From Escherichia coli (GTDB taxonomy: Bacteria; Pseudomonadota; Gammaproteobacteria; Enterobacterales; Enterobacteriaceae): a stretch of DNA of 64,000 bases. Both the position numbers and the translations under genes were made by a program. The stretch lies in NCBI RefSeq assembly GCF_003334355.1, contig NZ_QOWP01000012.1; one strand, written 5' to 3'. This document shows positions 1 through 60,686 of this stretch, in pieces (within the stretch, counting starts at the first letter, position 1; each line of letters starts with the position of its first letter). The notes beneath the pieces were generated by a model. The model ran no database searches. It had not been told where the DNA came from and saw only the letters and a program-made list of their open reading frames with translations.

Positions 1-1
1 A

Positions 2-1219
2 TTGATGTCGCTCGACACCGCGCTTAATGAGATGCTTTCTCGCGTTACCCCATTGACCACCCAGGAAACGCTGCCACTGGTACAGTGTTTTGGTCGTATT
101 CTGGCGAGCGATGTCGTTTCGCCGCTTGATGTTCCGGGGTTTGACAACTCCGCAATGGACGGCTACGCGGTGCGTTTAGCCGATATTGCCTCCGGGCAAC
201 CGCTGCCCGTTGCCGGTAAATCCTTTGCCGGTCAGCCATACCATGGTGAATGGCCTGCGGGCACCTGCATTCGTATTATGACCGGTGCGCCGGTGCCGGA
301 AGGCTGCGAAGCGGTGGTGATGCAGGAGCAGACTGAACAAACGGACAATGGCGTGCGTTTTACTGCTGAAGTGCGTAGCGGGCAAAATATTCGCCGTCGC
401 GGTGAAGATATCTCTGCAGGTGCGGTTGTTTTCCCGGCGGGAACTCGCCTGACTACCGCTGAACTGCCAGTGATTGCTTCACTGGGGATTGCCGAAGTTC
501 CGGTGATTCGTAAAGTGCGTGTAGCGCTTTTTTCTACCGGTGATGAACTCCAGTTGCCCGGTCAGCCACTGGGCGATGGCCAAATCTACGATACCAACCG
601 TCTCGCCGTACACCTGATGTTAGAACAGCTGGGTTGCGAGGTAATCAACTTAGGGATTATCCGCGACGATCCCCATGCCCTGCGCGCCGCATTTATTGAA
701 GCCGACAGCCAGGCGGATGTAGTGATCAGTTCCGGCGGTGTTTCAGTGGGTGAAGCGGATTACACCAAAACGATTCTTGAAGAGCTGGGGGAGATCGCCT
801 TCTGGAAGCTGGCGATTAAACCAGGTAAACCGTTCGCGTTCGGTAAACTCAGCAATAGCTGGTTCTGCGGCCTGCCGGGCAACCCGGTTTCAGCGACGCT
901 GACCTTCTATCAACTGGTACAGCCTTTGCTGGCAAAACTAAGCGGCAACACCGCCAGCGGCCTGCCCGCGCGCCAGCGCGTACGCACAGCGTCCCGCCTG
1001 AAAAAAACGCCAGGACGTCTTGATTTCCAGCGCGGCGTGCTGCACCGCAACGCCGATGGCGAACTGGAAGTGACGACCACCGGACATCAGGGCTCACATA
1101 TATTCAGCTCCTTTAGCCTCGGCAACTGCTTTATCGTACTGGAACGCGATCGCGGCAATGTGGAAGTGGGCGAATGGGTGGAAGTAGAACCGTTTAACGC
1201 GTTGTTCGGAGGCCTGTAA
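2..1219 (+). CDS. moeA: Molybdopterin molybdenumtransferase MoeA, 5'-truncated by the window edge
   Basis: ORF runs from the window start; translation recognised as MoeA lacking only the first few residues; stop overlaps the moeB start. Confidence 0.9.
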
Positions 1220-1968
1220 TGGCGGAACTCAGCGATCAGGAGATGCTGCGCTACAACCGGCAAATCATTCTGCGCGGTTTTGATTTTGACGGTCAGGAGG
1301 CGCTAAAAGATTCTCGTGTGCTGGTAGTCGGCCTCGGTGGACTCGGCTGCGCAGCTTCGCAGTATCTGGCAAGCGCCGGTGTCGGCAACCTGACGCTGCT
1401 CGACTTCGACTCGGTTTCGCTCTCGAATCTGCAACGCCAGACGCTGCACAGTGATGCCACGGTCGGGCAACCGAAGGTGGAATCCGCCCGTGACGCCCTG
1501 GCGCGGATCAATCCACATATCGCGATTACGCCAGTCAATGCACTGCTGGATGACGCAGAACTTGCAGCATTGATTGCTGAACACGATCTGGTGCTCGACT
1601 GTACGGATAACGTTGCGGTACGTAATCAACTGAACGCAGGCTGTTTTGCCGCGAAGGTGCCGCTGGTTTCCGGCGCGGCAATTCGTATGGAAGGGCAAAT
1701 CACGGTCTTCACTTATCAGGACGGCGAACCGTGCTATCGCTGCCTTAGCCGTTTGTTTGGCGAGAACGCATTAACCTGCGTAGAAGCAGGCGTGATGGCA
1801 CCGTTGATCGGCGTAATTGGTTCGTTGCAGGCAATGGAAGCGATCAAACTGCTGGCAGGTTATGGCAAACCGGCCAGCGGGAAAATCGTCATGTACGATG
1901 CGATGACCTGTCAGTTTCGCGAAATGAAACTGATGCGCAATCCGGGGTGTGAGGTGTGCGGGCAGTAA
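1219..1968 (+). CDS. moeB: Molybdopterin-synthase adenylyltransferase MoeB
   Basis: 249 aa ORF with ThiF/MoeB-type GxGxxG motif (VVGLGGLGC) and C-terminal CxxC pairs; start overlaps the moeA stop. Confidence 0.9.
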   Translation: MAELSDQEMLRYNRQIILRGFDFDGQEALKDSRVLVVGLGGLGCAASQYLASAGVGNLTLLDFDSVSLSNLQRQTLHSDATVGQPKVESARDALARINPHIAITPVNALLDDAELAALIAEHDLVLDCTDNVAVRNQLNAGCFAAKVPLVSGAAIRMEGQITVFTYQDGEPCYRCLSRLFGENALTCVEAGVMAPLIGVIGSLQAMEAIKLLAGYGKPASGKIVMYDAMTCQFREMKLMRNPGCEVCGQ

Positions 1969-1977
1969 TTGCCACCT

Positions 1978-2070
1978 CCAGGCCTGATAAGACGCGACAA
2001 GCGTCGCATCAGGCATTTGCTCCAGACGCCAGATGCGGCGTGAACGCCTTATCTGGCCTACGGTTCGGGC
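1978..2070. repeat. REP/BIME palindromic repeat cluster
   Basis: GCCTGATAAGACGCG...CGTCGCATCAGGC and GCCAGATGCGGCGTGAACGCCTTATCTGGCCTAC units typical of E. coli REP elements, between convergent moeB and fsaA. Confidence 0.7.
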
Positions 2071-2146
2071 ACAGATTTCCAAGCGCGGCAGGCATCGGTG
2101 CACTCCGCCACGTCATCAGCAATTTATGAGGATGCAGAACGTCCGG

Positions 2147-2809
2147 TTAAATCGACGTTCTGCCAAACGCTCCCTGCCAGTCCTGCTCAAACTTCGCCAC
2201 AGCGGCTTCCACCGCCGGATAGCTAATCATCTGTTGTGCCACATCCAGTGGCAGAGTAATTGATTCACATCCTGCCAGTAAGCAGTCCAGCGCCTGACGC
2301 GGGGTTTTGAAACTCGCTGCCAGCACTTTCGCCTGCGGCGCATGCATTTTCAATAACTGGTGTAAGTCGGTCACAGTCTGAATGCCGCTACCGCCCTGAG
2401 CATCAATACGATTAACGTAAGGCGCAACATATTCCGCACCTGCCAGCGCCGACAGCAGCCCTTGTGCTGCGCCATATACCGCGGTTCCCAGCGTTGGAAT
2501 CCCTTCCGCTTTTAACATCTTAATAGCTGCCAGCCCCTCGGCGGTCACCGGAACTTTCACCACGATATCCGCAATAATAGAACGCAATTTACGTGCGTCA
2601 TTCACCATCCCTTCAGCAGTGGTAGCCATTACCTGGGCAAACAGACGCCCCTGACCGCCCATCGCTTCATGAAGTTGCGGAAGCACAACATCCAGCGGTT
2701 TTTTACCCGCGGCGATAATGCTTGGGTTAGTGGTCACACCCGCCAGCGGAAAAATACGTGACAGCGCCTTCACCGCAACAACGTCTGAAGTATCCAGATA
2801 CAGTTCCAT
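2147..2809 (-). CDS. fsaA: Fructose-6-phosphate aldolase 1
   Basis: Translation from internal Met ([10 protein letters not shown]...) gives 220 aa, recognised as FsaA; the ORF-track N-terminal extension is not used. Confidence 0.9.
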
Positions 2810-2912
2810 AACCATCCTCAAAATGTACTTTTTGTCTGAATGTAGACTATCACGGGAAAACTCTCTGAACAGTTGACGCACATCAATCTAACTTTCATTC
2901 GAAAGTATTTTA

Positions 2913-3839
2913 ATGCTTGAACGAAATAGAGAGGCAACTATGATTTTCAATATTCAGCGCTACTCGACCCATGATGGCCCCGGTATCCGCACGGTCGTAT
3001 TTCTTAAAGGCTGTTCGCTGGGCTGCCGCTGGTGTCAGAACCCGGAAAGCCGCGCCCGCACGCAGGATCTGCTGTATGACGCACGACTGTGTCTGGAAGG
3101 CTGCGAGCTGTGCGCTAAGGCCGCGCCGGAAGTGATTGAGCGCGCGCTGAATGGTTTGCTTATTCATCGGGAAAAGTTAACCCCGGAGCATCTGACGGCG
3201 TTAACCGACTGCTGTCCGACACAGGCATTAACCGTGTGTGGTGAAGTGAAAAGCGTTGAGGAGATCATGACGACCGTTCTGCGCGATAAACCGTTTTACG
3301 ATCGCAGCGGCGGCGGTTTAACGCTTTCGGGTGGTGAGCCCTTTATGCAGCCGGAAATGGCGATGGCGCTACTGCAAGCCAGCCACGAGGCAGGCATTCA
3401 TACTGCGGTAGAAACCTGTCTGCATGTGCCGTGGAAATATATCGCCCCTTCTCTGCCCTATATCGATCTGTTTCTTGCCGATTTAAAACACGTTGCCGAC
3501 GCGCCGTTTAAACAGTGGACCGACGGTAACGCCGCCAGAGTGCTGGATAACCTGAAAAAACTCGCCGCAGCGGGCAAAAAAATCATTATCCGCGTGCCGC
3601 TGATTCAGGGCTTTAATGCCGACGAAACCTCTGTAAAAGCCATTACCGATTTTGCCGCCGACGAGCTGCACGTTGGCGAAATTCATTTTCTGCCCTACCA
3701 CACGCTGGGCATCAACAAATATCACTTACTTAATCTGCCCTATGACGCCCCGGAAAAACCGCTTGATGCGCCAGAACTGCTCGACTTTGCCCAGCAGTAT
3801 GCCTGCCAGAAAGGGTTAACCGCGACCTTACGAGGATAA
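2913..3839 (+). CDS. ybiY: Glycyl-radical enzyme activating enzyme (radical SAM, PflA-like)
   Basis: 308 aa ORF with radical-SAM CxxxCxxC (CSLGCRWC) and extra Cys clusters; sits immediately upstream of the glycyl radical enzyme gene. The start could instead be the internal Met at about 2940. Confidence 0.85.
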
Positions 3840-3844
3840 CAACC

Positions 3845-6277
3845 ATGACCACACTGAAACTGGACACGCTCAGCGACCGCATTAAAGCGCACAAAAATGC
3901 GCTGGTGCATATTGTGAAACCGCCAGTCTGTACCGAGCGCGCGCAGCACTATACCGAGATGTATCAACAACATCTCGATAAGCCGATCCCGGTACGTCGC
4001 GCGCTGGCACTGGCGCATCACCTGGCGAATCGCACCATCTGGATCAAACACGATGAGTTGATCATTGGCAACCAGGCAAGCGAAGTTCGCGCCGCGCCGA
4101 TCTTCCCGGAATATACTGTCTCGTGGATCGAAAAAGAGATTGATGATCTGGCAGATCGTCCCGGTGCTGGCTTTGCGGTGAGCGAAGAGAACAAACGCGT
4201 TCTGCATGAAGTGTGCCCGTGGTGGCGCGGTCAGACCGTACAGGATCGCTGCTACGGCATGTTTACCGATGAGCAAAAAGGTCTGCTGGCGACCGGAATC
4301 ATTAAAGCGGAAGGCAATATGACCTCCGGCGATGCGCACCTGGCGGTGAATTTCCCGCTGCTGCTGGAAAAAGGGCTTGATGGTCTGCGCGAGAAAGTAG
4401 CGGAACGTCGCTCGCGCATCAACCTGACGGTGCTGGAAGATTTACACGGTGAGCAATTCCTGAAAGCGATTGATATCGTGCTGGTGGCAGTCAGTGAACA
4501 CATTGAACGTTTCGCTGCCCTGGCGCGTGAAATGGCCGCGACCGAAACCCGCGAAAGCCGTCGCGATGAACTGCTGGCGATGGCAGAAAACTGCGATCTT
4601 ATCGCCCACCAGCCGCCGCAGACTTTCTGGCAGGCGCTGCAACTGTGTTACTTCATCCAGTTGATTTTGCAGATCGAATCTAACGGTCACTCAGTATCGT
4701 TTGGTCGTATGGACCAGTATCTCTACCCGTACTATCGCCGCGACGTTGAACTCAACCAGACGCTGGATCGCGAACACGCCATCGAGATGCTGCATAGCTG
4801 CTGGCTGAAACTGCTGGAAGTGAACAAGATCCGCTCCGGCTCACACTCAAAAGCCTCTGCGGGAAGTCCGCTGTATCAGAACGTCACTATTGGCGGGCAA
4901 AATCTGGTTGATGGTCAACCAATGGACGCGGTGAATCCACTCTCTTACGCGATCCTCGAATCCTGCGGTCGCCTGCGTTCCACTCAGCCTAACCTCAGCG
5001 TGCGTTACCATGCAGGAATGAGCAACGATTTCCTCGACGCCTGCGTACAGGTGATCCGTTGCGGCTTCGGGATGCCGGCGTTCAACAACGACGAAATCGT
5101 GATCCCGGAATTTATTAAACTCGGTATTGAACCGCAGGACGCTTATGACTACGCAGCGATTGGTTGTATAGAAACCGCCGTCGGTGGCAAATGGGGCTAT
5201 CGCTGTACCGGCATGAGCTTTATCAACTTCGCCCGCGTGATGCTGGCGGCGCTGGAAGGCGGGCATGATGCCACCAGCGGCAAAGTGTTCCTGCCACAAG
5301 AAAAAGCGTTGTCGGCAGGTAACTTCAACAACTTCGATGAAGTGATGGACGCGTGGGATACGCAAATCCGTTACTACACCCGCAAATCAATCGAAATCGA
5401 ATATGTCGTCGACACCATGCTGGAAGAGAACGTGCACGATATTCTCTGCTCGGCGCTGGTGGATGACTGTATTGAGCGAGCGAAAAGTATCAAGCAAGGC
5501 GGCGCGAAATATGACTGGGTTTCTGGCCTGCAGGTCGGCATTGCCAACCTCGGCAACAGCCTGGCGGCAGTGAAGAAACTGGTGTTTGAACAAGGTGCGA
5601 TTGGTCAGCAACAGCTTGCTGCCGCACTGGCAGATGACTTCGACGGCCTGACTCACGAGCAGCTGCGTCAGCGGCTGATTAACGGTGCGCCGAAGTACGG
5701 CAACGACGATGATACTGTCGATACGCTGCTGGCTCGCGCTTATCAGACCTATATCGACGAACTGAAACAGTACCATAATCCGCGCTACGGTCGTGGTCCG
5801 GTTGGCGGCAACTATTACGCGGGTACGTCATCAATCTCCGCTAACGTACCGTTTGGCGCGCAGACTATGGCAACACCGGACGGGCGTAAAGCCCACACCC
5901 CGCTGGCAGAAGGCGCAAGCCCGGCCTCCGGTACTGACCATCTTGGCCCTACTGCGGTCATTGGCTCAGTGGGTAAACTGCCTACGGCAGCGATTCTCGG
6001 CGGCGTGTTGCTCAACCAGAAACTGAATCCGGCAACGCTGGAGAACGAATCTGACAAGCAGAAACTGATGATCCTGCTGCGTACCTTCTTTGAAGTGCAT
6101 AAAGGCTGGCATATTCAGTACAACATCGTTTCCCGCGAAACGCTGCTGGATGCGAAAAAACATCCCGATCAGTATCGCGATCTGGTAGTGCGTGTCGCGG
6201 GCTATTCCGCGTTCTTCACCGCGCTCTCTCCAGACGCTCAGGACGATATCATCGCCCGTACTGAACATATGCTGTAA
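3845..6277 (+). CDS. ybiW: Glycyl radical enzyme, pyruvate formate-lyase family
   Basis: 810 aa ORF with C-terminal glycyl radical motif RVAGYSAFF; length matches YbiW. Confidence 0.9.
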   Translation: MTTLKLDTLSDRIKAHKNALVHIVKPPVCTERAQHYTEMYQQHLDKPIPVRRALALAHHLANRTIWIKHDELIIGNQASEVRAAPIFPEYTVSWIEKEIDDLADRPGAGFAVSEENKRVLHEVCPWWRGQTVQDRCYGMFTDEQKGLLATGIIKAEGNMTSGDAHLAVNFPLLLEKGLDGLREKVAERRSRINLTVLEDLHGEQFLKAIDIVLVAVSEHIERFAALAREMAATETRESRRDELLAMAENCDLIAHQPPQTFWQALQLCYFIQLILQIESNGHSVSFGRMDQYLYPYYRRDVELNQTLDREHAIEMLHSCWLKLLEVNKIRSGSHSKASAGSPLYQNVTIGGQNLVDGQPMDAVNPLSYAILESCGRLRSTQPNLSVRYHAGMSNDFLDACVQVIRCGFGMPAFNNDEIVIPEFIKLGIEPQDAYDYAAIGCIETAVGGKWGYRCTGMSFINFARVMLAALEGGHDATSGKVFLPQEKALSAGNFNNFDEVMDAWDTQIRYYTRKSIEIEYVVDTMLEENVHDILCSALVDDCIERAKSIKQGGAKYDWVSGLQVGIANLGNSLAAVKKLVFEQGAIGQQQLAAALADDFDGLTHEQLRQRLINGAPKYGNDDDTVDTLLARAYQTYIDELKQYHNPRYGRGPVGGNYYAGTSSISANVPFGAQTMATPDGRKAHTPLAEGASPASGTDHLGPTAVIGSVGKLPTAAILGGVLLNQKLNPATLENESDKQKLMILLRTFFEVHKGWHIQYNIVSRETLLDAKKHPDQYRDLVVRVAGYSAFFTALSPDAQDDIIARTEHML

Positions 6278-6422
6278 TCTCCTCGGCCCGGCGGCGTCGT
6301 CGCCGGGCTAAATCATTCACATCATCAATTTCATCCTTACTTTCATTCGAAATATAATTTGTGCTCTGCGTCACATTGTTATTACACTGTTACGGTTTCA
6401 TTTTCGAGCCAGGAGCACACCT

Positions 6423-7238
6423 ATGAGCGTAAAAGTTATCGTCACAGACATGGACGGTACTTTTCTTAACGACGCCAAAACGTACAACCAACCACGTTTT
6501 ATGGCGCAATATCAGGAACTGAAAAAGCGCGGCATTAAGTTCGTTGTTGCCAGCGGTAATCAGTATTACCAGCTTATTTCATTCTTTCCTGAGCTAAAGG
6601 ATGAGATCTCTTTTGTCGCGGAAAACGGCGCACTGGTTTACGAACATGGCAAGCAGTTGTTCCACGGCGAACTAACCCGACATGAATCGCGGATTGTTAT
6701 TGGCGAGTTGCTAAAAGATAAGCAACTCAATTTTGTCGCCTGCGGTCTGCAAAGTGCATATGTCAGCGAAAATGCCCCCGAAGCATTTGTCGCACTGATG
6801 GCAAAACACTACCATCGCCTGAAACCTGTAAAAGATTATCAGGAGATTGACGACGTACTGTTCAAGTTTTCGCTCAACCTGCCGGATGAACAAATCCCGT
6901 TAGTGATCGACAAACTGCACGTAGCGCTCGATGGCATTATGAAACCCGTTACCAGTGGTTTTGGCTTTATCGACCTGATTATTCCCGGTCTACATAAAGC
7001 AAACGGTATTTCGCGGTTACTGAAACGCTGGGATCTGTCACCGCAAAATGTGGTAGCGATTGGCGACAGCGGTAACGATGCGGAGATGCTGAAAATGGCG
7101 CGTTATTCCTTTGCGATGGGCAATGCTGCGGAAAACATTAAACAAATCGCCCGTTACGCTACCGATGATAATAATCATGAAGGCGCGCTGAATGTGATTC
7201 AGGCGGTGCTGGATAACACATCCCCTTTTAACAGCTGA
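6423..7238 (+). CDS. ybiV: HAD-superfamily (Cof-type) sugar phosphatase
   Basis: 271 aa ORF with N-terminal DMDGT HAD motif. Confidence 0.9.
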
Positions 7239-7389
7239 CCTCTCTACCGGAGCCGTGCGCTCCGGTTTTCCCTTCTTTTTACATCCTGTACATCACATCA
7301 AATCATTAAACTTGCATTAACTTATTTATAACTTATATTGTCACATGCAAATCAGAATGGTTTCGAATGAAAGTTAATGAGAGGTGGTT

Positions 7390-8655
7390 ATGGCTTCTAC
7401 TTTTACCAGCGACACATTGCCTGCCGATCACAAAGCAGCTATCCGTCAGATGAAGCACGCGCTGCGGGCGCAGCTTGGCGACGTCCAGCAGATCTTTAAT
7501 CAGCTAAGCGATGACATTGCCACGCGAGTGGCTGAAATCAACGCACTCAAAGCACAGGGCGATGCCGTCTGGCCGGTGCTGTCTTATGCCGATATCAAAG
7601 CAGGTCATGTTACTGCAGAGCAGCGCGAACAGATTAAACGTCGCGGTTGTGCGGTGATAAAAGGCCATTTCCCCCGCGAACAAGCGCTAGGCTGGGATCA
7701 GTCGATGCTGGACTATCTGGACCGCAACCGCTTTGACGAGGTCTACAAAGGCCCCGGCGATAATTTCTTCGGGACGCTCAGCGCTTCACGTCCCGAGATT
7801 TACCCCATCTACTGGTCGCAGGCGCAAATGCAGGCCCGCCAGAGTGAAGAAATGGCGAATGCGCAGTCGTTTCTCAATCGTCTGTGGACATTTGAAAGTG
7901 ATGGAAAGCAATGGTTTAACCCGGATGTGAGCGTCATCTACCCTGACCGTATCCGCCGCCGTCCGCCCGGAACGACCTCCAAAGGTCTTGGAGCGCATAC
8001 CGACTCCGGGGCACTGGAACGCTGGCTGCTTCCAGCGTATCAGCGCGTTTTCGCCAACGTCTTTAATGGCAATCTGGCGCAATATGATCCCTGGCATGCG
8101 GCACATCGTACGGAAGTTGAAGAGTACACGGTGGACAACACCACCAAATGTTCCGTGTTTCGGACATTCCAGGGCTGGACAGCGCTCTCTGATATGCTGC
8201 CTGGTCAGGGGCTGCTGCACGTCGTGCCCATTCCTGAAGCTATGGCGTACGTACTGTTACGTCCGCTGCTTGATGATGTGCCGGAGGATGAACTGTGCGG
8301 CGTAGCGCCCGGAAGAGTATTGCCGGTATCAGAGCAATGGCATCCACTGTTGATTGAGGCGTTAACCAGCATTCCAAAACTCGAAGCCGGAGACTCCGTC
8401 TGGTGGCACTGCGACGTCATCCATTCCGTTGCCCCCGTTGAAAATCAACAAGGTTGGGGCAACGTGATGTACATTCCTGCGGCACCGATGTGCGAGAAAA
8501 ATCTTGCCTACGCGCACAAGGTGAAGGCCGCACTGGAAAAAGGCGCATCGCCGGGCGACTTCCCGCGCGAGGACTATGAAACAAACTGGGAAGGACGCTT
8601 TACGCTTGCCGACCTCAACATTCACGGTAAGCGAGCGTTGGGCATGGATGTTTGA
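7390..8655 (+). CDS. ybiU: DUF1479-family protein
   Basis: ORF recognised as YbiU; start placed at the second ATG to give the expected 421 aa. Confidence 0.8.
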   Translation: MASTFTSDTLPADHKAAIRQMKHALRAQLGDVQQIFNQLSDDIATRVAEINALKAQGDAVWPVLSYADIKAGHVTAEQREQIKRRGCAVIKGHFPREQALGWDQSMLDYLDRNRFDEVYKGPGDNFFGTLSASRPEIYPIYWSQAQMQARQSEEMANAQSFLNRLWTFESDGKQWFNPDVSVIYPDRIRRRPPGTTSKGLGAHTDSGALERWLLPAYQRVFANVFNGNLAQYDPWHAAHRTEVEEYTVDNTTKCSVFRTFQGWTALSDMLPGQGLLHVVPIPEAMAYVLLRPLLDDVPEDELCGVAPGRVLPVSEQWHPLLIEALTSIPKLEAGDSVWWHCDVIHSVAPVENQQGWGNVMYIPAAPMCEKNLAYAHKVKAALEKGASPGDFPREDYETNWEGRFTLADLNIHGKRALGMDV

Positions 8656-8736
8656 GAATTAATGGAAGTGAATTGATGTGGGATTAAGAAAATCGATTCG
8701 ACGTTACTCAGATTGCTGACAAATGCGCTTTGTTAA

Positions 8737-8835
8737 TGCCTGATGCGGCGTTAACGCCTTATCCGGCCTACAAAGTCCTGCAGATTCAATATATTGCAGG
8801 TACTGCGTAGGCCTGATAAGCGTAGCGCATCAGGC
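8737..8835. repeat. REP/BIME repeat cluster
   Basis: GCCTGATGCGGCGTTAACGCCTTATCCGGCCTAC and TAGGCCTGATAAGCGTAGCGCATCAGGC units between convergent ybiU and ybiT. Confidence 0.7.
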
Positions 8836-8854
8836 TATTTTGCATTTGTCATCA

Positions 8855-8888
8855 GCCGCCGTCACCCCGACAGTATCGGGGTGACGGA
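8855..8888. terminator. Hairpin just downstream of ybiT (perfect 10-bp stem GTCACCCCGA/TCGGGGTGAC)
   Basis: Inverted repeat read directly in the sequence, immediately 3' of the ybiT stop on the minus strand. Confidence 0.5.
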
Positions 8889-8895
8889 TAATCAC

Positions 8896-10488
8896 TTACT
8901 CGATCCCTTTACTACGCAGGTAATCTTCGTAATTACCGCTAAAGTCGATCACGCGTTCCGGGGTGATTTCCAGAATGCGGGTCGCCAGGGAGCTTACGAA
9001 CTCACGGTCGTGTGAAACAAAGATCAGCGTGCCCTGATACAGTTCCAGTGCCATGTTCAGCGACTCAATGGATTCCATATCCAGGTGGTTGGTCGGTTCG
9101 TCCATGATCAGAATGTTCGGCTTCTGCATCATTAACTTACCAAACAGCATCCGCCCTTTTTCCCCACCGGAAAGCACTTTAGCTGGCTTTTTGATGTCGT
9201 CCTGGCTGAACAGCAAACGACCGAGAATACTGCGTACCGCCTGCTCGTCATCGCCTTCCTGCTTCCACTGGCTCATCCATTCGAACACGGTCAGATCATT
9301 TTCAAACTCATATTCGTGGTCCTGAGCATAGTAACCAATGCGCGCGTTCTCAGACCATTTTACGGTGCCGCTGTCCGGTTGCAGATCGCCCACCAGCGTT
9401 TTCAGCAGCGTTGATTTACCGACGCCGTTGGTACCCAGTACCGCCAGTTTTTCACCCACTTCCAGCAGCAGGTTGAGATTTTTAAACAGCGGACCGTTAT
9501 CAAACCCTTTGGTCAGACCTTCCACTTCCAGCGCGTTACGGAACAGTTTCTTATCCTGTTCAAAACGGATGAACGGGTTCTGACGGCTGGAGGCTTTCAC
9601 CTCTTCCAGTTTGATTTTATCAATCTGGCGCGCGCGCGAAGTTGCCTGGCGAGATTTCGAGGCGTTGGCGCTAAAGCGGCTAACGAAAGATTGCAACTCA
9701 GCAATCTGCGCTTTCTTCTTGGCGTTATCGGCCAGCAGACGTTCACGCGCCTGGGTCGCCGCCGTCATGTACTCATCGTAGTTACCCGGATAAACGCGCA
9801 GCTCGCCGTAATCCAGATCCGCCATGTGGGTACAGACCATGTTAAGGAAGTGACGGTCGTGCGAGATGATGATCATGGTGCTGTCACGCTCGTTCAGCAC
9901 CTGTTCCAGCCAGCGAATGGTGTCGATGTCGAGGTTGTTGGTCGGTTCGTCGAGCAGGAGAATATCCGGATCAGCAAACAGCGCCTGCGCCAGAAGCACA
10001 CGCAGCTTCCAGCCAGGAGCAACTTCACTCATCGGGCCGTAGTGCTGTTCCACTGGAATTCCCACGCCAAGCAACAGTTCACCGGCGCGAGCTTCCGCAG
10101 AGTAACCGTCCATTTCGCCGTATTTAACTTCCAGATCGGCCACTTTATAGCCGTCTTCTTCACTCATTTCCGGCAAAGCATAGATGCGGTCGCGCTCCTG
10201 CTTCACTTCCCACAACTCTTTATGCCCCATGATCACCGTATCCAGCACAGTGAACTCTTCAAAGGCAAACTGATCCTGACGCAGTTTACCAATGCGCTCG
10301 TTGGGATCGAGGGAAACGTTACCCAGCGTCGGCTCAAGGTCGCCGCCGAGGATCTTCATAAAGGTGGATTTACCACTACCGTTCGCGCCAATCAGGCCGT
10401 AACGGTTGCCGCCGCCAAATTTGACGGAAATGTTTTCAAACAACGGCTTACTGCCGAACTGCATGGTGACGTTACTGGAAACTAACAC
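8896..10488 (-). CDS. ybiT: ABC-F family ATPase (two tandem ABC domains, no transmembrane domain)
   Basis: 530 aa ORF with two Walker A motifs ([18 protein letters not shown]) and two LSGGE signature motifs. Confidence 0.9.
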
Positions 10489-10706
10489 AGGCGTATCCTG
10501 AAAAGAGATATGACAAACCGCGCATTATGCCATAAGTCTGAAAGAAGATCCTGCTCCTCGCTTAAGGTCTACACTCAAGCCAAAGGCAAAAAATGTGATT
10601 TCGTACACATCTGATTTCACTGTGAGCTGGAATGAACTTATAATGCGCTTCCAATACTCTAATATTCTCAACCCAATGGCCTGCCAGGCACAAAATCTCG
10701 CTTAAC

Positions 10707-11627
10707 ATGAATATGAAATTGAAAACATTATTCGCAGCGGCCTTCGCTGTTGTCGGCTTTTGCAGTACCGCCTCTGCGGTAACTTATCCTCTGCCAACCG
10801 ACGGGAGTCGCCTGGTTGGTCAGAATCAGGTGATCACCATTCCTGAAGGTAACACTCAGCCGCTGGAGTATTTTGCCGCCGAGTACCAGATGGGGCTTTC
10901 CAATATGATGGAAGCGAACCCGGGTGTGGATACCTTCCTGCCGAAAGGCGGTACTGTACTGAACATTCCGCAGCAGCTGATCCTGCCGGATACCGTTCAT
11001 GAAGGCATCGTCATTAACAGTGCTGAGATGCGTCTTTATTACTATCCGAAAGGGACCAACACCGTTATCGTGCTGCCGATCGGCATTGGTCAGTTAGGCA
11101 AAGATACGCCTATCAACTGGACCACCAAAGTTGAGCGTAAAAAAGCAGGCCCGACCTGGACGCCGACCGCCAAAATGCACGCAGAGTACCGCGCTGCGGG
11201 CGAACCGCTTCCGGCTGTCGTTCCGGCAGGTCCGGATAACCCGATGGGGCTGTATGCACTCTATATCGGTCGCCTGTATGCTATCCATGGCACCAACGCC
11301 AACTTCGGTATCGGCCTGCGTGTAAGTCATGGTTGTGTGCGTCTGCGTAACGAAGACATCAAATTCCTGTTCGAGAAAGTACCGGTCGGTACCCGCGTAC
11401 AGTTTATTGATGAGCCGGTAAAAGCGACCACCGAGCCAGACGGCAGCCGTTATATTGAAGTCCATAACCCGCTGTCTACCACCGAAGCCCAGTTTGAAGG
11501 TCAGGAAATTGTGCCAATTACCCTGACGAAGAGCGTGCAGACAGTGACCGGTCAGCCAGATGTTGACCAGGTTGTTCTTGATGAAGCGATTAAAAACCGC
11601 TCCGGGATGCCGGTTCGTCTGAATTAA
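10707..11627 (+). CDS. ldtB: L,D-transpeptidase (YkuD domain with signal peptide)
   Basis: 306 aa ORF with signal peptide and catalytic SHGCVRL motif. Confidence 0.9.
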
Positions 11628-11644
11628 TCTTCAAAACTTAAAGC

Positions 11645-11673
11645 AAAAGGCGGACTCATAATCCGCCTTTTTT
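11645..11673. terminator. Bidirectional rho-independent terminator between ldtB and ybiR
   Basis: AAAAGGCGGACTCATAATCCGCCTTTTTT: GC stem flanked by A-run and T-run. Confidence 0.7.
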
Positions 11674-11685
11674 ATTTGCCAGACC

Positions 11686-12804
11686 CTAGTTGGCCGGGAG
11701 TATAACTAACAAAACATATCCCACCAACGCCGCCCACAACAGCATCGGTATTGAATAGAGATGGAAACGCCACCAGATGCGGCGATCGTTCGCCATACGT
11801 AGCGCAATCAAATTTGCCAGCGATCCGGGTAATAACCCAAAGCCACCTACGTTTACCGCCCATACCAGTAATAAAGACGGCGGCACATAGTTCAGCAACA
11901 ATATGGTACTCGGCACGTTACTGATCACCTGCGATAAACCGATTGCCGTTAACCATAACCCGGGTTCAGATAGATGACTCACGTTACCCAACACGCCTTG
12001 CAACGCTGGAAGCTGGGTCAGTAAATGGACGTCGATAAACATCGCCATAAACACCAGCAGCAGCGTCCAGTCCACACTGAGCACCACGCGACGTGCCAGC
12101 AGCGCAAAGCCTGCCGCCACAATCACCAGTCCCCACAGCTCTTGTTTGAACTCCAGCGCCGTCAGAAAGACGATATACAGCCCCAGACAACTCCACACCA
12201 GCCGCGGTTTCCACTCCGGTGTTTGCACCCCCGTATGGTATTGCAGCGCCTTTCCAGGGAAACAACACCAGCACAGGAGCAGGAGCGTCAGCATCATTGC
12301 GCCAGCCAGCGGTGCCATTTGGGCAATAAATCCGGCAAACGAAAGACCAGAACGTCCCCAGATAAGAATATTTTGCGGGTTGCCAATTGGCGTCAGTAGC
12401 GAACCAGCGTTGACTGCCAGCGCCTCAAAAATAATCAGCCGATTAACCGGGATCTCACACAGTCTTTTTAGCGTGATAGTCAGCGGAACAACAATAAACA
12501 GCGCGACATCGTTGGTCAGAAAGGTAGAAAGCAGCGCCGCCGCCAGCACCATAAACATCGCCAGCCGACGCTCCGTAGCAAAGCGGCGCACCATTTTGCG
12601 CCCCAGCACATCAAAATAACCGCTTAACTCCACACCTTTGGTCAGCAGCATCAGGCCGCTTAAGGTGATGATGGTGTGCCAGTCGATAGCAGCAGGCCAG
12701 GATTTCGGTGCAAAGGGCACGAAAAAGCTTAATCCGATACCAACAAGAATTAATAACTGAAAAAAACGATCGCCTTGCAGCGTGCGTAAAAAAGGCAGAC
12801 TCAT
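11686..12804 (-). CDS. ybiR: Putative anion permease (ArsB/NhaD-like inner membrane transporter)
   Basis: 372 aa hydrophobic ORF; start overlaps the mntR stop. Confidence 0.85.
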
Positions 12805-20830: not shown

Positions 20831-20970
20831 GCACGTTGTCAGCAACCTGCTTAATATCCCTTCCTCCCTTTCACCCGAAAGGGAGGCACACCAGATTCCT
20901 CTCATTTAAAATCGCCCCTCCTCCAGCATCTATACTTATCTTTTTGCTCTATTTTCTCACTGGAGGAGTC

Positions 20971-28789: not shown

Positions 28790-28915
28790 GTAGGACGGAT
28801 AAGGCGTTTACGCCGCATCCGGCAACAGATGCCTGATGCGACGCTACCGCGTCTTATCAGGCCTACAAAATCCGAACCGTTGGACGGATCAGGCGTTTAC
28901 GCTACGTCCAGCACA
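28790..28915. repeat. REP/BIME repeat cluster (three REP units)
   Basis: GGACGGATAAGGCGTTTACGCCGCATCCGGC, GCCTGATGCGACGCTACCGCGTCTTATCAGGCCTAC and GGACGGATCAGGCGTTTACGCTACGTCC units. Confidence 0.7.
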
Positions 28916-34062: not shown

Positions 34063-34165
<103 letters not shown>

Positions 34166-48417: not shown

Positions 48418-49407
48418 TTAGCCGCCAATGTACGATAAGTTTTGCGTAATACCGGTGTTGTTTTGATGCAGGAAATGGGTCTGTTTCTTCTCCCGCAGCG
48501 CCGCTGAAATACGCGCTTCCAGCGCCTGTTGCTGGGTATCGTCTTCCAGCAGATCGCGCAGGTTAACGCCGCCTTCACCAAACAGGCAGAGATGGAGTTT
48601 ACCAATAGAGGAAACGCGCAGGCGGTTGCAAGTGGCGCAGAAGTCTTTTTCATACGGCATGATAAGGCCAATCTCTCCGGCGTAATCTGGATGGCAAAAG
48701 ACTTGCGCGGGACCGTCGCTGCGTTGACGTAATTGGTGGATCCAGCCGCGACGCAGTAGCTCGTCACGCAGAACCTGACCAGAGATGTGATGCTTACGGA
48801 AGAGCTCGCTGCCCTCGCCCGTTTCCATCAGTTCGATGAAACGCAGCTGGATAGGGCGATGCTGGATCCAGTTCAGAAAGGTGTCGAGCTGGTGATGATT
48901 AACATCACGCATCAGCACGGTATTGACTTTGACCTTCTCAAAACCGGCCTCAAATGCAGCATCAATCCCTGCCATGACCTGGTTGAATTTATCCTGCCCG
49001 GTAATAGCGTGAAACTGGCGGGCGTCCAGACTGTCGACACTGACGTTAATGCCAGTAAGTCCCGCATCGCGCCAGTTCGCCACATCGCGTTCCAGACGGT
49101 AACCATTGGTTGTGACCGCAATCTGGCGGATAGCGTCGTTTTCCCGCACAGCGGCGATGATATCGGTAAAGTCGCGGCGTAAAGACGGCTCTCCTCCTGT
49201 CAGGCGCACTTTTTCGGTGCCCAGACTGGCGAAGGCGCGCGTAACCCGGCGAATTTCATCGACGGTAAGAAAGCCTTTATTGGTGACGCCGCTCGGTTTG
49301 TAGCCATCCGGCAGGCAGTAGGTGCAACGAAAGTTACACACATCGGTAATCGACAGGCGCAAGTAGTAAAACTTACGCGCAAATGCATCAGTCAGTTGTG
49401 AAGCCAT
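48418..49407 (-). CDS. moaA: GTP 3',8-cyclase MoaA (radical SAM)
   Basis: Translation from [31 protein letters not shown] gives 329 aa with CxxxCxxC; the ORF-track 27-aa extension lies in the leader and is rejected. Confidence 0.9.
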
Positions 49408-49560
49408 GTACACCTTTCCAGATACGGGAGGCGAAGTCATTTCTTCCTTCGCCCTGGTGGCAATCTTTACGAGCATTGTCACGGCCAAAGCACCGTATCA
49501 GTTGACCCAGGTGCAGAGGCTAGAGTGTTTAGTGGTTATGCCGATACTAGCGTGTAAATG
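49408..49560 (-). ncRNA. moaA 5' leader, candidate Moco riboswitch (cis-regulatory RNA)
   Basis: Structured, conserved-looking leader directly upstream of moaA; assigned from established knowledge that the E. coli moaA leader carries the Moco RNA motif. Boundaries are approximate. Confidence 0.5.
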
Positions 49561-49743
49561 AGATTTTTACCATCCACACTTTCGCTATGTAATCATGTAT
49601 ATAGCGTCATGATCGTGCTATTTCGCTACAGAATAAGGGAAAATGGCGGTTTTACTTTGATATACATCATCAGGGAGGCATAGCGTGCATCGTCCTTTAG
49701 AGGTAGAAGAAAATAGTTTGTATCCTCAATATTGGCAGGTTAA

Positions 49744-50744: not shown

Positions 50745-50875
50745 TGAAGACAAAGTGCGCGTTGTTTATGCCGGATGCGGCGTGAACGCCTTATCCGGCC
50801 TACAAACCGCGCAAATTCAATATATTGCGGAGAAAATGTAGGCCTGATAAGCGTAGCGCATCAGGCTGTTTTCCG
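50745..50875. repeat. REP/BIME repeat cluster
   Basis: GCCGGATGCGGCGTGAACGCCTTATCCGGCCTAC and TAGGCCTGATAAGCGTAGCGCATCAGGC units between ybhK and uvrB. Confidence 0.7.

Positions 50876-60461: not shown

Positions 60462-60686
<225 letters not shown>

Follow-up and report, generated by a model that had tools for sequence, protein, structure and literature searches.

What does a glycyl radical enzyme (GRE) do when it is encoded, together with its activase, between genes for fructose-6-phosphate aldolase and for a sugar phosphatase? The question is raised by the four genes fsaA, ybiY, ybiW and ybiV, which lie near the start of a 64,000-nucleotide stretch of Escherichia coli DNA (contig NZ_QOWP01000012.1 of assembly GCF_003334355.1, hereafter the window). 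We find it highly likely that these genes make up the "anhydroglycolysis" module of E. coli for 1,5-anhydroglucitol (AG), held under repression by YciT and under anaerobic activation, likely by FNR. The central function of the cluster was already published in 2024 and is hence no longer new; that work resolved two old E. coli puzzles, the "extra" enzymes resembling pyruvate formate-lyase (PFL) and the fructose-6-phosphate aldolase, while the RefSeq names ("putative pyruvate formate lyase", "glycyl radical protein") lag behind. The biochemical and the regulatory papers are apparently unconnected, and the Reg-Seq preprint (2025-26) still lists ybiYW as unannotated; taken together, the two bodies of work fit into a coherent picture, in which the residual novelty lies in YciT as an anhydroglucitol repressor, in FNR as co-activator, and in YbiU and YbiV.

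As PMC12441222 summarises the work of Ma et al. (JACS 2024), YbiW cleaves 1,5-anhydroglucitol-6-phosphate (AG6P) to 1-deoxyfructose-6-phosphate (1-deoxy-F6P), and PflD cleaves 1,5-anhydromannitol-6-phosphate (AM6P) to the same product. The same summary states that AG and 1,5-anhydromannitol are phosphorylated by phosphotransferase systems (PTS), that cleavage of AG6P and AM6P requires the glycyl radical, and that the pathway permits anaerobic growth on AG by E. coli and many gut bacteria (PMC12441222). The sequence-only reading of this DNA had proposed an anaerobic route for a sugar phosphate or sugar-derived compound, and this is borne out by the summarised conversion of AG6P to 1-deoxy-F6P by YbiW/YbiY (PMC12441222; PDB 8id7/8yjn). 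Its description of the substrate as incompletely defined is out of date, as AG6P has been defined (Ma et al. 2024 via PMC12441222); a non-sugar substrate, which it had named as evidence that would speak against it, was not what emerged, AG6P being a sugar derivative. As for the aldolase, FsaA scores 453.2 bits against NF009296 (cut-off 306) and 282.1 against TIGR00875 (cut-off 245.95), with its Schiff-base lysine K85 within VVKVP. FsaA and FsaB reportedly split 1-deoxy-F6P into glyceraldehyde-3-phosphate and hydroxyacetone, and GldA is said to reduce the hydroxyacetone to 1,2-propanediol. The physiological role of fructose-6-phosphate aldolase (FSA) was still termed enigmatic in 2020, and FSA accepts hydroxyacetone as a donor (PMC7767278), which, together with the fsaA-ybiYW linkage across genomes described below, supports the hydroxyacetone step of FsaA.

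Window 1-12000 is E. coli chromosome at 100% identity, and each of 5426 complete E. coli genomes carries the 5.1-kb four-gene block; fsaA/ybiY/ybiW/ybiV is a core E. coli chromosomal module. The RefSeq gene order around it is moeA, moeB (+), fsa, ybiY, ybiW, ybiV, ybiU, ybiT (-). Gene families were assigned from NCBIfam profile scores against curated cut-offs, and the genes and the structures between them are as follows.

1981..2058, minus strand: repeat of the repetitive extragenic palindrome/bacterial interspersed mosaic element (REP/BIME) type, Rfam naRNA4 (79.6 bits; strong fold, z = -5.3).
2147..2809, minus strand: fsaA, fructose-6-phosphate aldolase (RefSeq annotation, translation, NF009296, K85).
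2940..3839, plus strand: ybiY, radical S-adenosylmethionine (radical-SAM) activase of YbiW, 299 aa (annotation, Cys motif, TIGR02494).
3845..6277, plus strand: ybiW, glycyl radical enzyme, 810 aa (annotation, H165/C441/E443/G786, profile, PDB match).
6285..6309, plus strand: GC-rich hairpin right 3' of the ybiW stop (folding energy dG -22.5 kcal/mol, z = -4.4).
6423..7238, plus strand: ybiV, Cof-type HAD-IIB sugar phosphatase, 271 aa (annotation, D9/D11, TIGR00099, PDB).
7246..7280, plus strand: intrinsic terminator 3' of ybiV, an 8-bp GC stem followed by a T-run (dG -14.5 kcal/mol, z = -3.6).
7390..8655, plus strand: ybiU, encoding a Gig2-like/DUF1479 protein, just beyond the four-gene span and in the same regulon.

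Coordinates, motifs, family scores and the reading frames of fsaA, ybiY, ybiW and ybiV, all of them intact, agree with the cluster as first drawn from the letters, namely a GRE with an RVAGYSAFF motif and its radical-SAM activase flanked by fsaA and ybiV. The REP/BIME repeat separates the convergent moeB and fsaA and forms the left boundary of the module. Since fsaA lies on the opposite strand, divergent from ybiY-ybiW, and the 145-bp gap between ybiW and ybiV holds the strong hairpin and promoter-like elements of its own, the genes belong to three or four separate transcription units rather than to a single one. The hairpin is without a U-tract and is possibly a partial terminator or a transcript stabiliser. 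The idea of a single operon was dropped, given the divergent fsaA, the conserved promoter-like region that ybiV has for itself, and the terminator between ybiV and ybiU. A consensus promoter scan of the window returned 5 sites against 5.4 expected, which is no excess, and the promoter calls made here therefore rest on conservation.

The module was compared across 80 Enterobacterales loci with a YbiW of at least 85% identity. Context A, the E. coli type, runs from moeB to fsaA <> ybiY-ybiW (<> for divergent genes), ybiV and ybiU, and occurs without fsaA in Klebsiella, Raoultella, S. enterica subsp. diarizonae and some Kosakonia. In context B, fsaA <> ybiY-ybiW stands among unrelated genes, without ybiV or ybiU; this arrangement is found in Atlantibacter, Buttiauxella, Serratia, Franconibacter, Brenneria, Pantoea, Rouxiella, Mangrovibacter and other genera. 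Beside ybiYW, fsaA is present in 18 of the 21 loci of this alternative context. As fsaA stays with ybiYW in two unrelated contexts and ybiV and ybiU do not, the trio of aldolase, GRE and activase is the portable core. The link to a sugar-phosphate aldolase is thereby upheld, and the paralogous E. coli locus gldA-fsaB-ptsA <> frwCB-pflD-pflC-frwD, with pflD beside fsaB, repeats the aldolase-GRE pairing. A yciT orthologue (58-81% identical) directly adjoins the trio in 13 of the 21 context-B loci, in several genera. The richest example is Rouxiella aceris (L064, 5074-15671), where the order is yciT, ybiU, fsaA <> ybiY-ybiW-ROK kinase, gldA-like <> second yciT; this is a nearly complete pathway locus, and its ROK-family sugar kinase suggests entry into the pathway without the PTS. 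In Entomohabitans (L060, 12639-13232) a gene for a DJ-1 family glyoxalase III lies directly 3' of ybiW and may serve the handling of hydroxyacetone or methylglyoxal.

The alternative that survives best is that the module is mainly one of detoxification or repair: the PTS would by accident make AG6P, inhibitory and metabolically a dead end, and YbiW (anaerobically), YbiU (aerobically) and YbiV (by dephosphorylation) would remove it, controlled by a repressor responsive to its accumulation. In Yersinia (L081, L082; 7310-14134), ybiY-ybiW are flanked by sgrR and a setA-like gene for sugar efflux, and neither fsaA nor a YciT-type operator was found at these two loci; the insertion of ybiYW into this sugar-phosphate stress locus, noted by Horler and Vanderpool 2009 (PMC2760817), is what one would expect of a repair function. 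The same can be said of YbiV, well known as a promiscuous hexose-phosphate phosphatase, of the clearance of 1,5-AG6P by a repair phosphatase in humans (PMC12441222), and of the chromosomal expression, which is very low unless yciT is deleted. However, E. coli is reported in the summary cited above to grow anaerobically on 1,5-AG by this route (PMC12441222), and the tight, repeated linkage to an aldolase as well as the kinase and gldA-like gene of Rouxiella fit the harvesting of carbon. Repair as the main purpose thus appears to us an unlikely, if serious, alternative to AG catabolism, and the two readings are compatible and not mutually exclusive.

Control of the anhydroglucitol module by YciT is indicated by a repeated palindrome. 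Each of the three intergenic regions holds an exact copy of the 13-mer CTTTCATTCGAAA, at 2892-2904 (+), 6340-6352 (+) and 7361-7373 (-) respectively; the window thus has 3 copies where 0.01 would be expected. The 13-mer is the core of a 16-bp palindrome of 6+4+6 form, ACTTTCATTCGAAAGT. The sites and the elements beside them are as follows.

2891..2906, plus strand: operator O-ybiY, ACTTTCATTCGAAAGT, a probable YciT site 34-49 bp upstream of the ybiY ATG.
2909..2927, plus strand: -10-like TTTAAT (2909-2914), then a weaker operator-like box (phylogenetic footprint; putative function).
6339..6354, plus strand: operator O-ybiV, ACTTTCATTCGAAATA, abutting a TATAAT hexamer at 6353-6358.
7359..7374, minus strand: operator O-ybiU, ACTTTCATTCGAAACC, 16-31 bp upstream of the ybiU ATG.
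20867..20882, plus strand: operator-like palindrome CCTTTCACCCGAAAGG, a match with 2 mismatches, ~90 bp upstream of ybiO.

The operator positions are fixed across the 80 loci, at ~50 bp upstream of the start of ybiY, ~80 bp upstream of that of ybiV and ~30 bp upstream of that of ybiU. Of 81 upstream sequences, 74 keep O-ybiY with no more than 2 mismatches, O-ybiV is found in either orientation upstream of ybiV in nearly all ybiV-bearing loci, and where ybiU has been relocated, in Rouxiella (L064) and Mangrovibacter (L079), the operator has moved with it. L064 has a further operator-like site between the gldA-like gene and the second yciT (14829). The weaker box, ~21 bp after O-ybiY, reads cttGAACGAAA in E. 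coli and ttcATAyGmAA in other genera, and in L047 and L056 it scores as an operator with 1-2 mismatches.

YciT scores as a member of the DeoR family (488 bits with its own NCBIfam model; AgaR, GlpR and SrlR next best). Because yciT adjoins fsaA-ybiYW elsewhere and all five genes are derepressed in a yciT deletion, the palindrome is very probably the operator of this DeoR-type repressor. The reported log2 fold changes are +7.7 for ybiY, +7.0 for ybiU, +3.5 for ybiW, +2.2 for ybiV and +1.8 for fsaA, and chromatin immunoprecipitation with exonuclease trimming (ChIP-exo) gave YciT peaks at ybiY/fsaA, ybiV and ybiO (YciT ChIP-exo/RNA-seq study 2021). The Reg-Seq preprint found YciT enriched on ybiYp DNA by DNA-affinity mass spectrometry, with its site lying where the motif is, ~100 bp away from the ChIP-exo call. 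When the published ChIP-exo coordinates were converted to the window, CCTTTCACCCGAAAGG fell inside the YciT peak for ybiO; ybiO itself is a mechanosensitive channel gene with no evident link to anhydroglucitol. YciT would bind the ACTTTCATTCGAAAGT-type palindrome in or beside the promoters of ybiY (common to fsaA), ybiV and ybiU, and would probably respond to a sugar phosphate from the pathway as effector, with AG6P and 1-deoxy-F6P as candidates. The K-12 pflD/fsaB/gldA locus and the surroundings of yciT yielded only operator matches with 2-3 mismatches, in irrelevant places, so that neither autoregulation nor cross-regulation is in evidence in E. coli. As a repressor, YciT appears to govern an anhydroglucitol regulon rather than to be an osmotic-stress factor. 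The sequence-only reading had counted as evidence against itself a transcription of ybiYW that is independent of fsaA and ybiV and answers to unrelated signals: the units are indeed separate, but the signals are not unrelated, since the same operator recurs and all the genes are derepressed in the yciT deletion.

Release from YciT would not suffice for ybiYW, whose transcription would in addition need anaerobiosis, probably through FNR acting at the following box.

2873..2886, no strand assigned: FNR-like box TTGACgcacATCAA (9/10 against TTGAT-N4-ATCAA), 4 bp upstream of O-ybiY.

This box is present with at most 2 mismatches in 77 of 81 distinct upstream sequences (at most 1 in 63 of 81). It stands exactly 4 bp from the operator in 75 of the 81, and its N4 spacer occurs in 40 different versions. 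Its centre, 2879.5, is 41.5 bp from the ybiY start predicted from TTTAAT 2909-2914 and likewise 41.5 bp from the fsaA start predicted from the extended -10 TGaTAGTCT on the minus strand; with starts predicted in this way, one FNR-like site could serve both divergent promoters. In a class II FNR-activated promoter the box is centred near -41.5. The ybiY promoter is active only anaerobically, and an activator footprint, its protein not identified there, lies ~15 bp upstream of the YciT site (Reg-Seq preprint), at a position that matches the FNR-like box. FNR is probably the missing anaerobic activator of ybiYp, a candidacy suggested by motif and position.

Several observations weigh against this account of the module and its control. 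The converted ybiY and ybiV ChIP-exo peaks lie 100-150 bp from the nearest motif, and the Reg-Seq authors have remarked on the same offset at ybiY. Such displaced peak centres would be expected if the palindrome were bound by another regulator or were a structural repeat, and the effects of YciT were indirect. We judge this very improbable, because yciT orthologues adjoin the motif-bearing module in 13 loci of several genera, exactly the motif-flanked genes are derepressed in the yciT deletion, YciT is enriched on the ybiY promoter where the motif lies (Reg-Seq preprint), the ybiO variant sits inside its peak, and the palindrome agrees with the reported palindromic YciT motif. As regards FNR, its pattern in the window alone has 6 matches against 2.5 expected, which is not significant, and a literature search for ybiY and FNR gave no paper linking them; the box is retained as a candidate because it is conserved across species. 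Finally, ybiV and ybiU are absent beside the module in the alternative contexts, and ~20% of E. coli genomes lack ybiU or carry it in decayed form, 4331 of 5426 complete ones having the gene (242 of these with an allele at 60-80% DNA identity). Neither ybiV nor ybiU is therefore essential to the core route, which in our preferred reading is that of AG through YbiW and FsaA.

The active site of YbiW was compared with those of characterised GREs, as the sequence-only reading had advised, and proved to be of the eliminase type (G-C-x-E). The glycyl radical motif RVAGYSAFF covers residues 783-791 with G786 (window 6191-6217), in a column that is invariant with PflD and PflB. Over its full length YbiW scores 1410.9 bits against the PFL2/glycerol-dehydratase GRE subfamily TIGR01774 (cut-off 678.2). 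Its Cys loop, G440-C441-I442-E443, aligns with GCVE in both glycerol dehydratase and PflD; one Cys with a Glu two residues on is the pattern of eliminating GREs (glycerol dehydratase 1r8w, propanediol dehydratase 5i2a, PflD), whereas the PflB equivalent is C-C-V-S, with the adjacent Cys-Cys pair of PFL proper (C418/C419) that YbiW lacks. H165 aligns with the His of glycerol dehydratase in the SG(D/V)xH segment, and an ESNGHS segment is common to both enzymes; Asp447 of glycerol dehydratase is retained in PflD (H-D) but not in YbiW. The ybiW product is the crystallised YbiW (PDB 8id7, 8yjn; PflD is PDB 8yjo) apart from four positions of the 810-residue alignment: residues 114, 115 and 117 are Ala in the PDB entries (SAANARV against SEENKRV here; window 4184-4195), and residue 183 is Glu there and Lys here (window 4391-4393). 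The first three are apparent engineered surface-entropy mutations and the last an apparent strain variant. YbiY scores 370 bits against the GRE activase family TIGR02494 (cut-off 174) and carries the radical-SAM CX3CX2C motif (C25/C29/C32) plus auxiliary Cys clusters; with only 5 bp from the end of ybiY to the start of ybiW, a dedicated activase is encoded alongside the GRE. That YbiW is instead a PFL isoenzyme with coincidental neighbours, as the K-12 RefSeq and legacy labels "putative formate acetyltransferase 3" and "putative pyruvate formate lyase" imply and as an applied study took from annotation in treating it as a formate acetyltransferase (PMC9055928), is in effect refuted, with next to no probability left to it, by its 26% identity to PflB (39% to PflD), the GC-I-E in place of Cys-Cys, a defined other substrate, crystal structures, and a score of 165.1 bits against the PFL equivalog TIGR01255, whose cut-off of 994.2 makes the legacy name wrong.

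The aligned residues are consistent with a radical 1,2-elimination in which the ring oxygen is the leaving group. AG would enter by the PTS as AG-6-phosphate, which is a published step. Radical-SAM activases of the GRE family generate the glycyl radical, and on this basis YbiY would place the radical on G786 of YbiW. From G786 it would move to C441, and the thiyl would abstract a hydrogen from AG6P at C2. The base would be E443, and the proton would likely come from H165, roles that are assigned by alignment with glycerol dehydratase. Elimination of the C1-O5 ring bond, with loss of O5 from C1 and return of the hydrogen to C1, would yield 1-deoxyfructose-6-phosphate, which FsaA would split into glyceraldehyde-3-phosphate and hydroxyacetone, feeding glycolysis.

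YbiV scores 221.3 bits against the Cof-type HAD-IIB family TIGR00099 (cut-off 137) and has the DxD nucleophile motif D9-M-D11-G-T; PDB 1rlm is the same protein, and 2hf2 is also a YbiV structure. As the operator upstream of its gene is conserved, YbiV is a genuine regulon member. The sequence-only reading had placed ybiV in the module; it is co-regulated (operator and derepression), but its membership as a step of the route is not supported, and outside the E. coli-type context it does not travel with the core genes. YbiV could plausibly act on AG6P as a relief or repair phosphatase. One further element lies in its upstream region.

6360..6375, no strand assigned: CRP-like box TGTGCtctgcgTCACA, upstream of ybiV, with the pattern TGTGC-N6-TCACA.

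Nearly all genera retain the TGTGC-N6-TCACA pattern upstream of ybiV, and it does not stand at the distance from the likely ybiV -10 that is standard for an activating site.

YbiU is a classic y-ome protein. It belongs to the Pfam Gig2-like/DUF1479 family, of which there are several unannotated crystal structures, and has the double-stranded beta-helix fold of Fe(II)/2-oxoglutarate dioxygenases (PhyH-like). A first search gave only near-identical enterobacterial DUF1479 proteins, and the homologue set was taken from a representative search; among its 35 homologues, down to 27% identity, the iron triad H203, D205 and H345 (HxD...H) is at least 90% conserved. Two of the four distant homologues with placed context lie in sugar-transporter or sugar-catabolic operons, and the other two are uninformative. 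Literature searches on ybiU, on DUF1479 and on Gig2 with oxygenase returned no functional or assay data. The promoter region of ybiU contains the following element.

7313..7340, plus strand: ybiU promoter-like element TTGCAT, 16 bp, TATATT; highly conserved across genera, with a putative promoter function.

This conserved sigma-70-like promoter is without an FNR box. In the yciT-deletion comparison, ybiU is by far the highest-expressed regulon member (mean count ~6500), and ybiY and ybiW are low, which fits an extra anaerobic requirement of ybiYW. In other genera (for example L016, L018, L036) an inverted repeat, CAAGTTTTTAAACTTG, overlaps the -35 of the promoter-like element, and outside Escherichia the repeat is well conserved; it is degenerate at window ~7293-7312 and may be the site of a further regulator. 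Strain HH97 (L090, 2500-5120) has only N- and C-terminal remnants of ybiU and retains the operator, and the E. albertii and E. whittamii loci (L004, L005) are without ybiU. In many A-type loci (for example L018, L022, L036) the gap between ybiU and ybiT is ~5-6 kb longer than in E. coli.

A more speculative extension, which we think doubtful, is that YciT senses AG6P or 1-deoxy-F6P for a regulon of two arms with an overflow valve. The anaerobic arm would be the FNR-dependent, oxygen-sensitive YbiW together with FsaA. In the aerobic arm YbiU would oxygenate the same anhydro-sugar phosphate, for example by hydroxylation of C1 next to the ring oxygen to give glucose-6-phosphate, and YbiV would drain excess AG6P. 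If true, such a two-arm regulon would provide a first biochemical function for the DUF1479/Gig2 family. 1,5-Anhydroglucitol is a dietary sugar analogue and a clinical marker of glycaemia, and AG6P is the toxic metabolite in the neutropenias of G6PC3 deficiency and glycogen storage disease type Ib (GSD-Ib); for this last reason its disposal by gut bacteria has some medical relevance.

Elsewhere in the window, one regulatory RNA and some further repeats were noted.

49395-49539, minus strand: molybdenum cofactor riboswitch (Rfam, 103.6 bits).

An FNR-like box, TTGATATACATCAT, lies at 49657-49670, ~120 bp from this riboswitch, and the two presumably represent the moaA leader and promoter. Other REP/BIME-type repeats (Rfam naRNA4, ES036) are found at 8772-8814, 28793-28863, 34099-34141, 50804-50845 and 60522-60592; the repeats of this type in the window sit between convergent or tandem genes.

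Among known systems, human G6PC3/G6PT offers the parallel to YbiV: there a phosphatase removes the 1,5-AG6P that is made by side-phosphorylation of dietary 1,5-AG (PMC12441222), and YbiV could do the same, although as a soluble HAD-IIB protein it has no sequence relation to G6PC3. YciT resembles GlpR, AgaR, SrlR, UlaR and DeoR, fellow members of the DeoR family, in repressing a small catabolic regulon through repeated palindromes that overlap promoters. In E. coli yciT is ~480 kb from its targets, whereas in other genera it is adjacent to them; the published proposal for YciT is osmotic stress, which the content of the regulon does not suggest.

The closest non-orthologous structures to YbiW are those of glycerol dehydratase (C. 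butyricum, 1r8w; E 1e-163) and the GRE 1,2-propanediol dehydratase (5i2a; E 2e-151). YbiW shares with glycerol dehydratase the Gly motif, Cys-x-Glu, the His of SG(D/V)xH and ESNGHS, and with both enzymes the radical 1,2-elimination of an oxygen leaving group beside a hydroxyl-bearing carbon. Unlike the dehydratases, YbiW has as its leaving group the ether oxygen in the ring of a phosphorylated anhydro-hexitol, so that the ring opens and no water is released; the substrate is also much larger and phosphorylated, and Asp447 of glycerol dehydratase is not conserved. The nearest relative is the pflD system, which has a GRE of the same subfamily with Cys-x-Glu (YbiW/PflD 39% and YbiY/PflC 36% identical), a neighbouring FSA aldolase (FsaB, 70% identical to FsaA) and, in the summary cited above, the same product, 1-deoxy-F6P (PMC12441222). 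It differs in that the Asp447 equivalent is kept in PflD and lost in YbiW, in having PTS components of its own, gldA and an AraC-type neighbour, yijO, and in that no YciT-type operator was found in the pflD/fsaB locus (best matches, 3 mismatches); the ybiW locus has ybiV and ybiU instead of the PTS components, gldA and yijO. PflD/PflC-FsaB-GldA-Frw PTS (b3945-b3953) is the AM6P branch of the same pathway.

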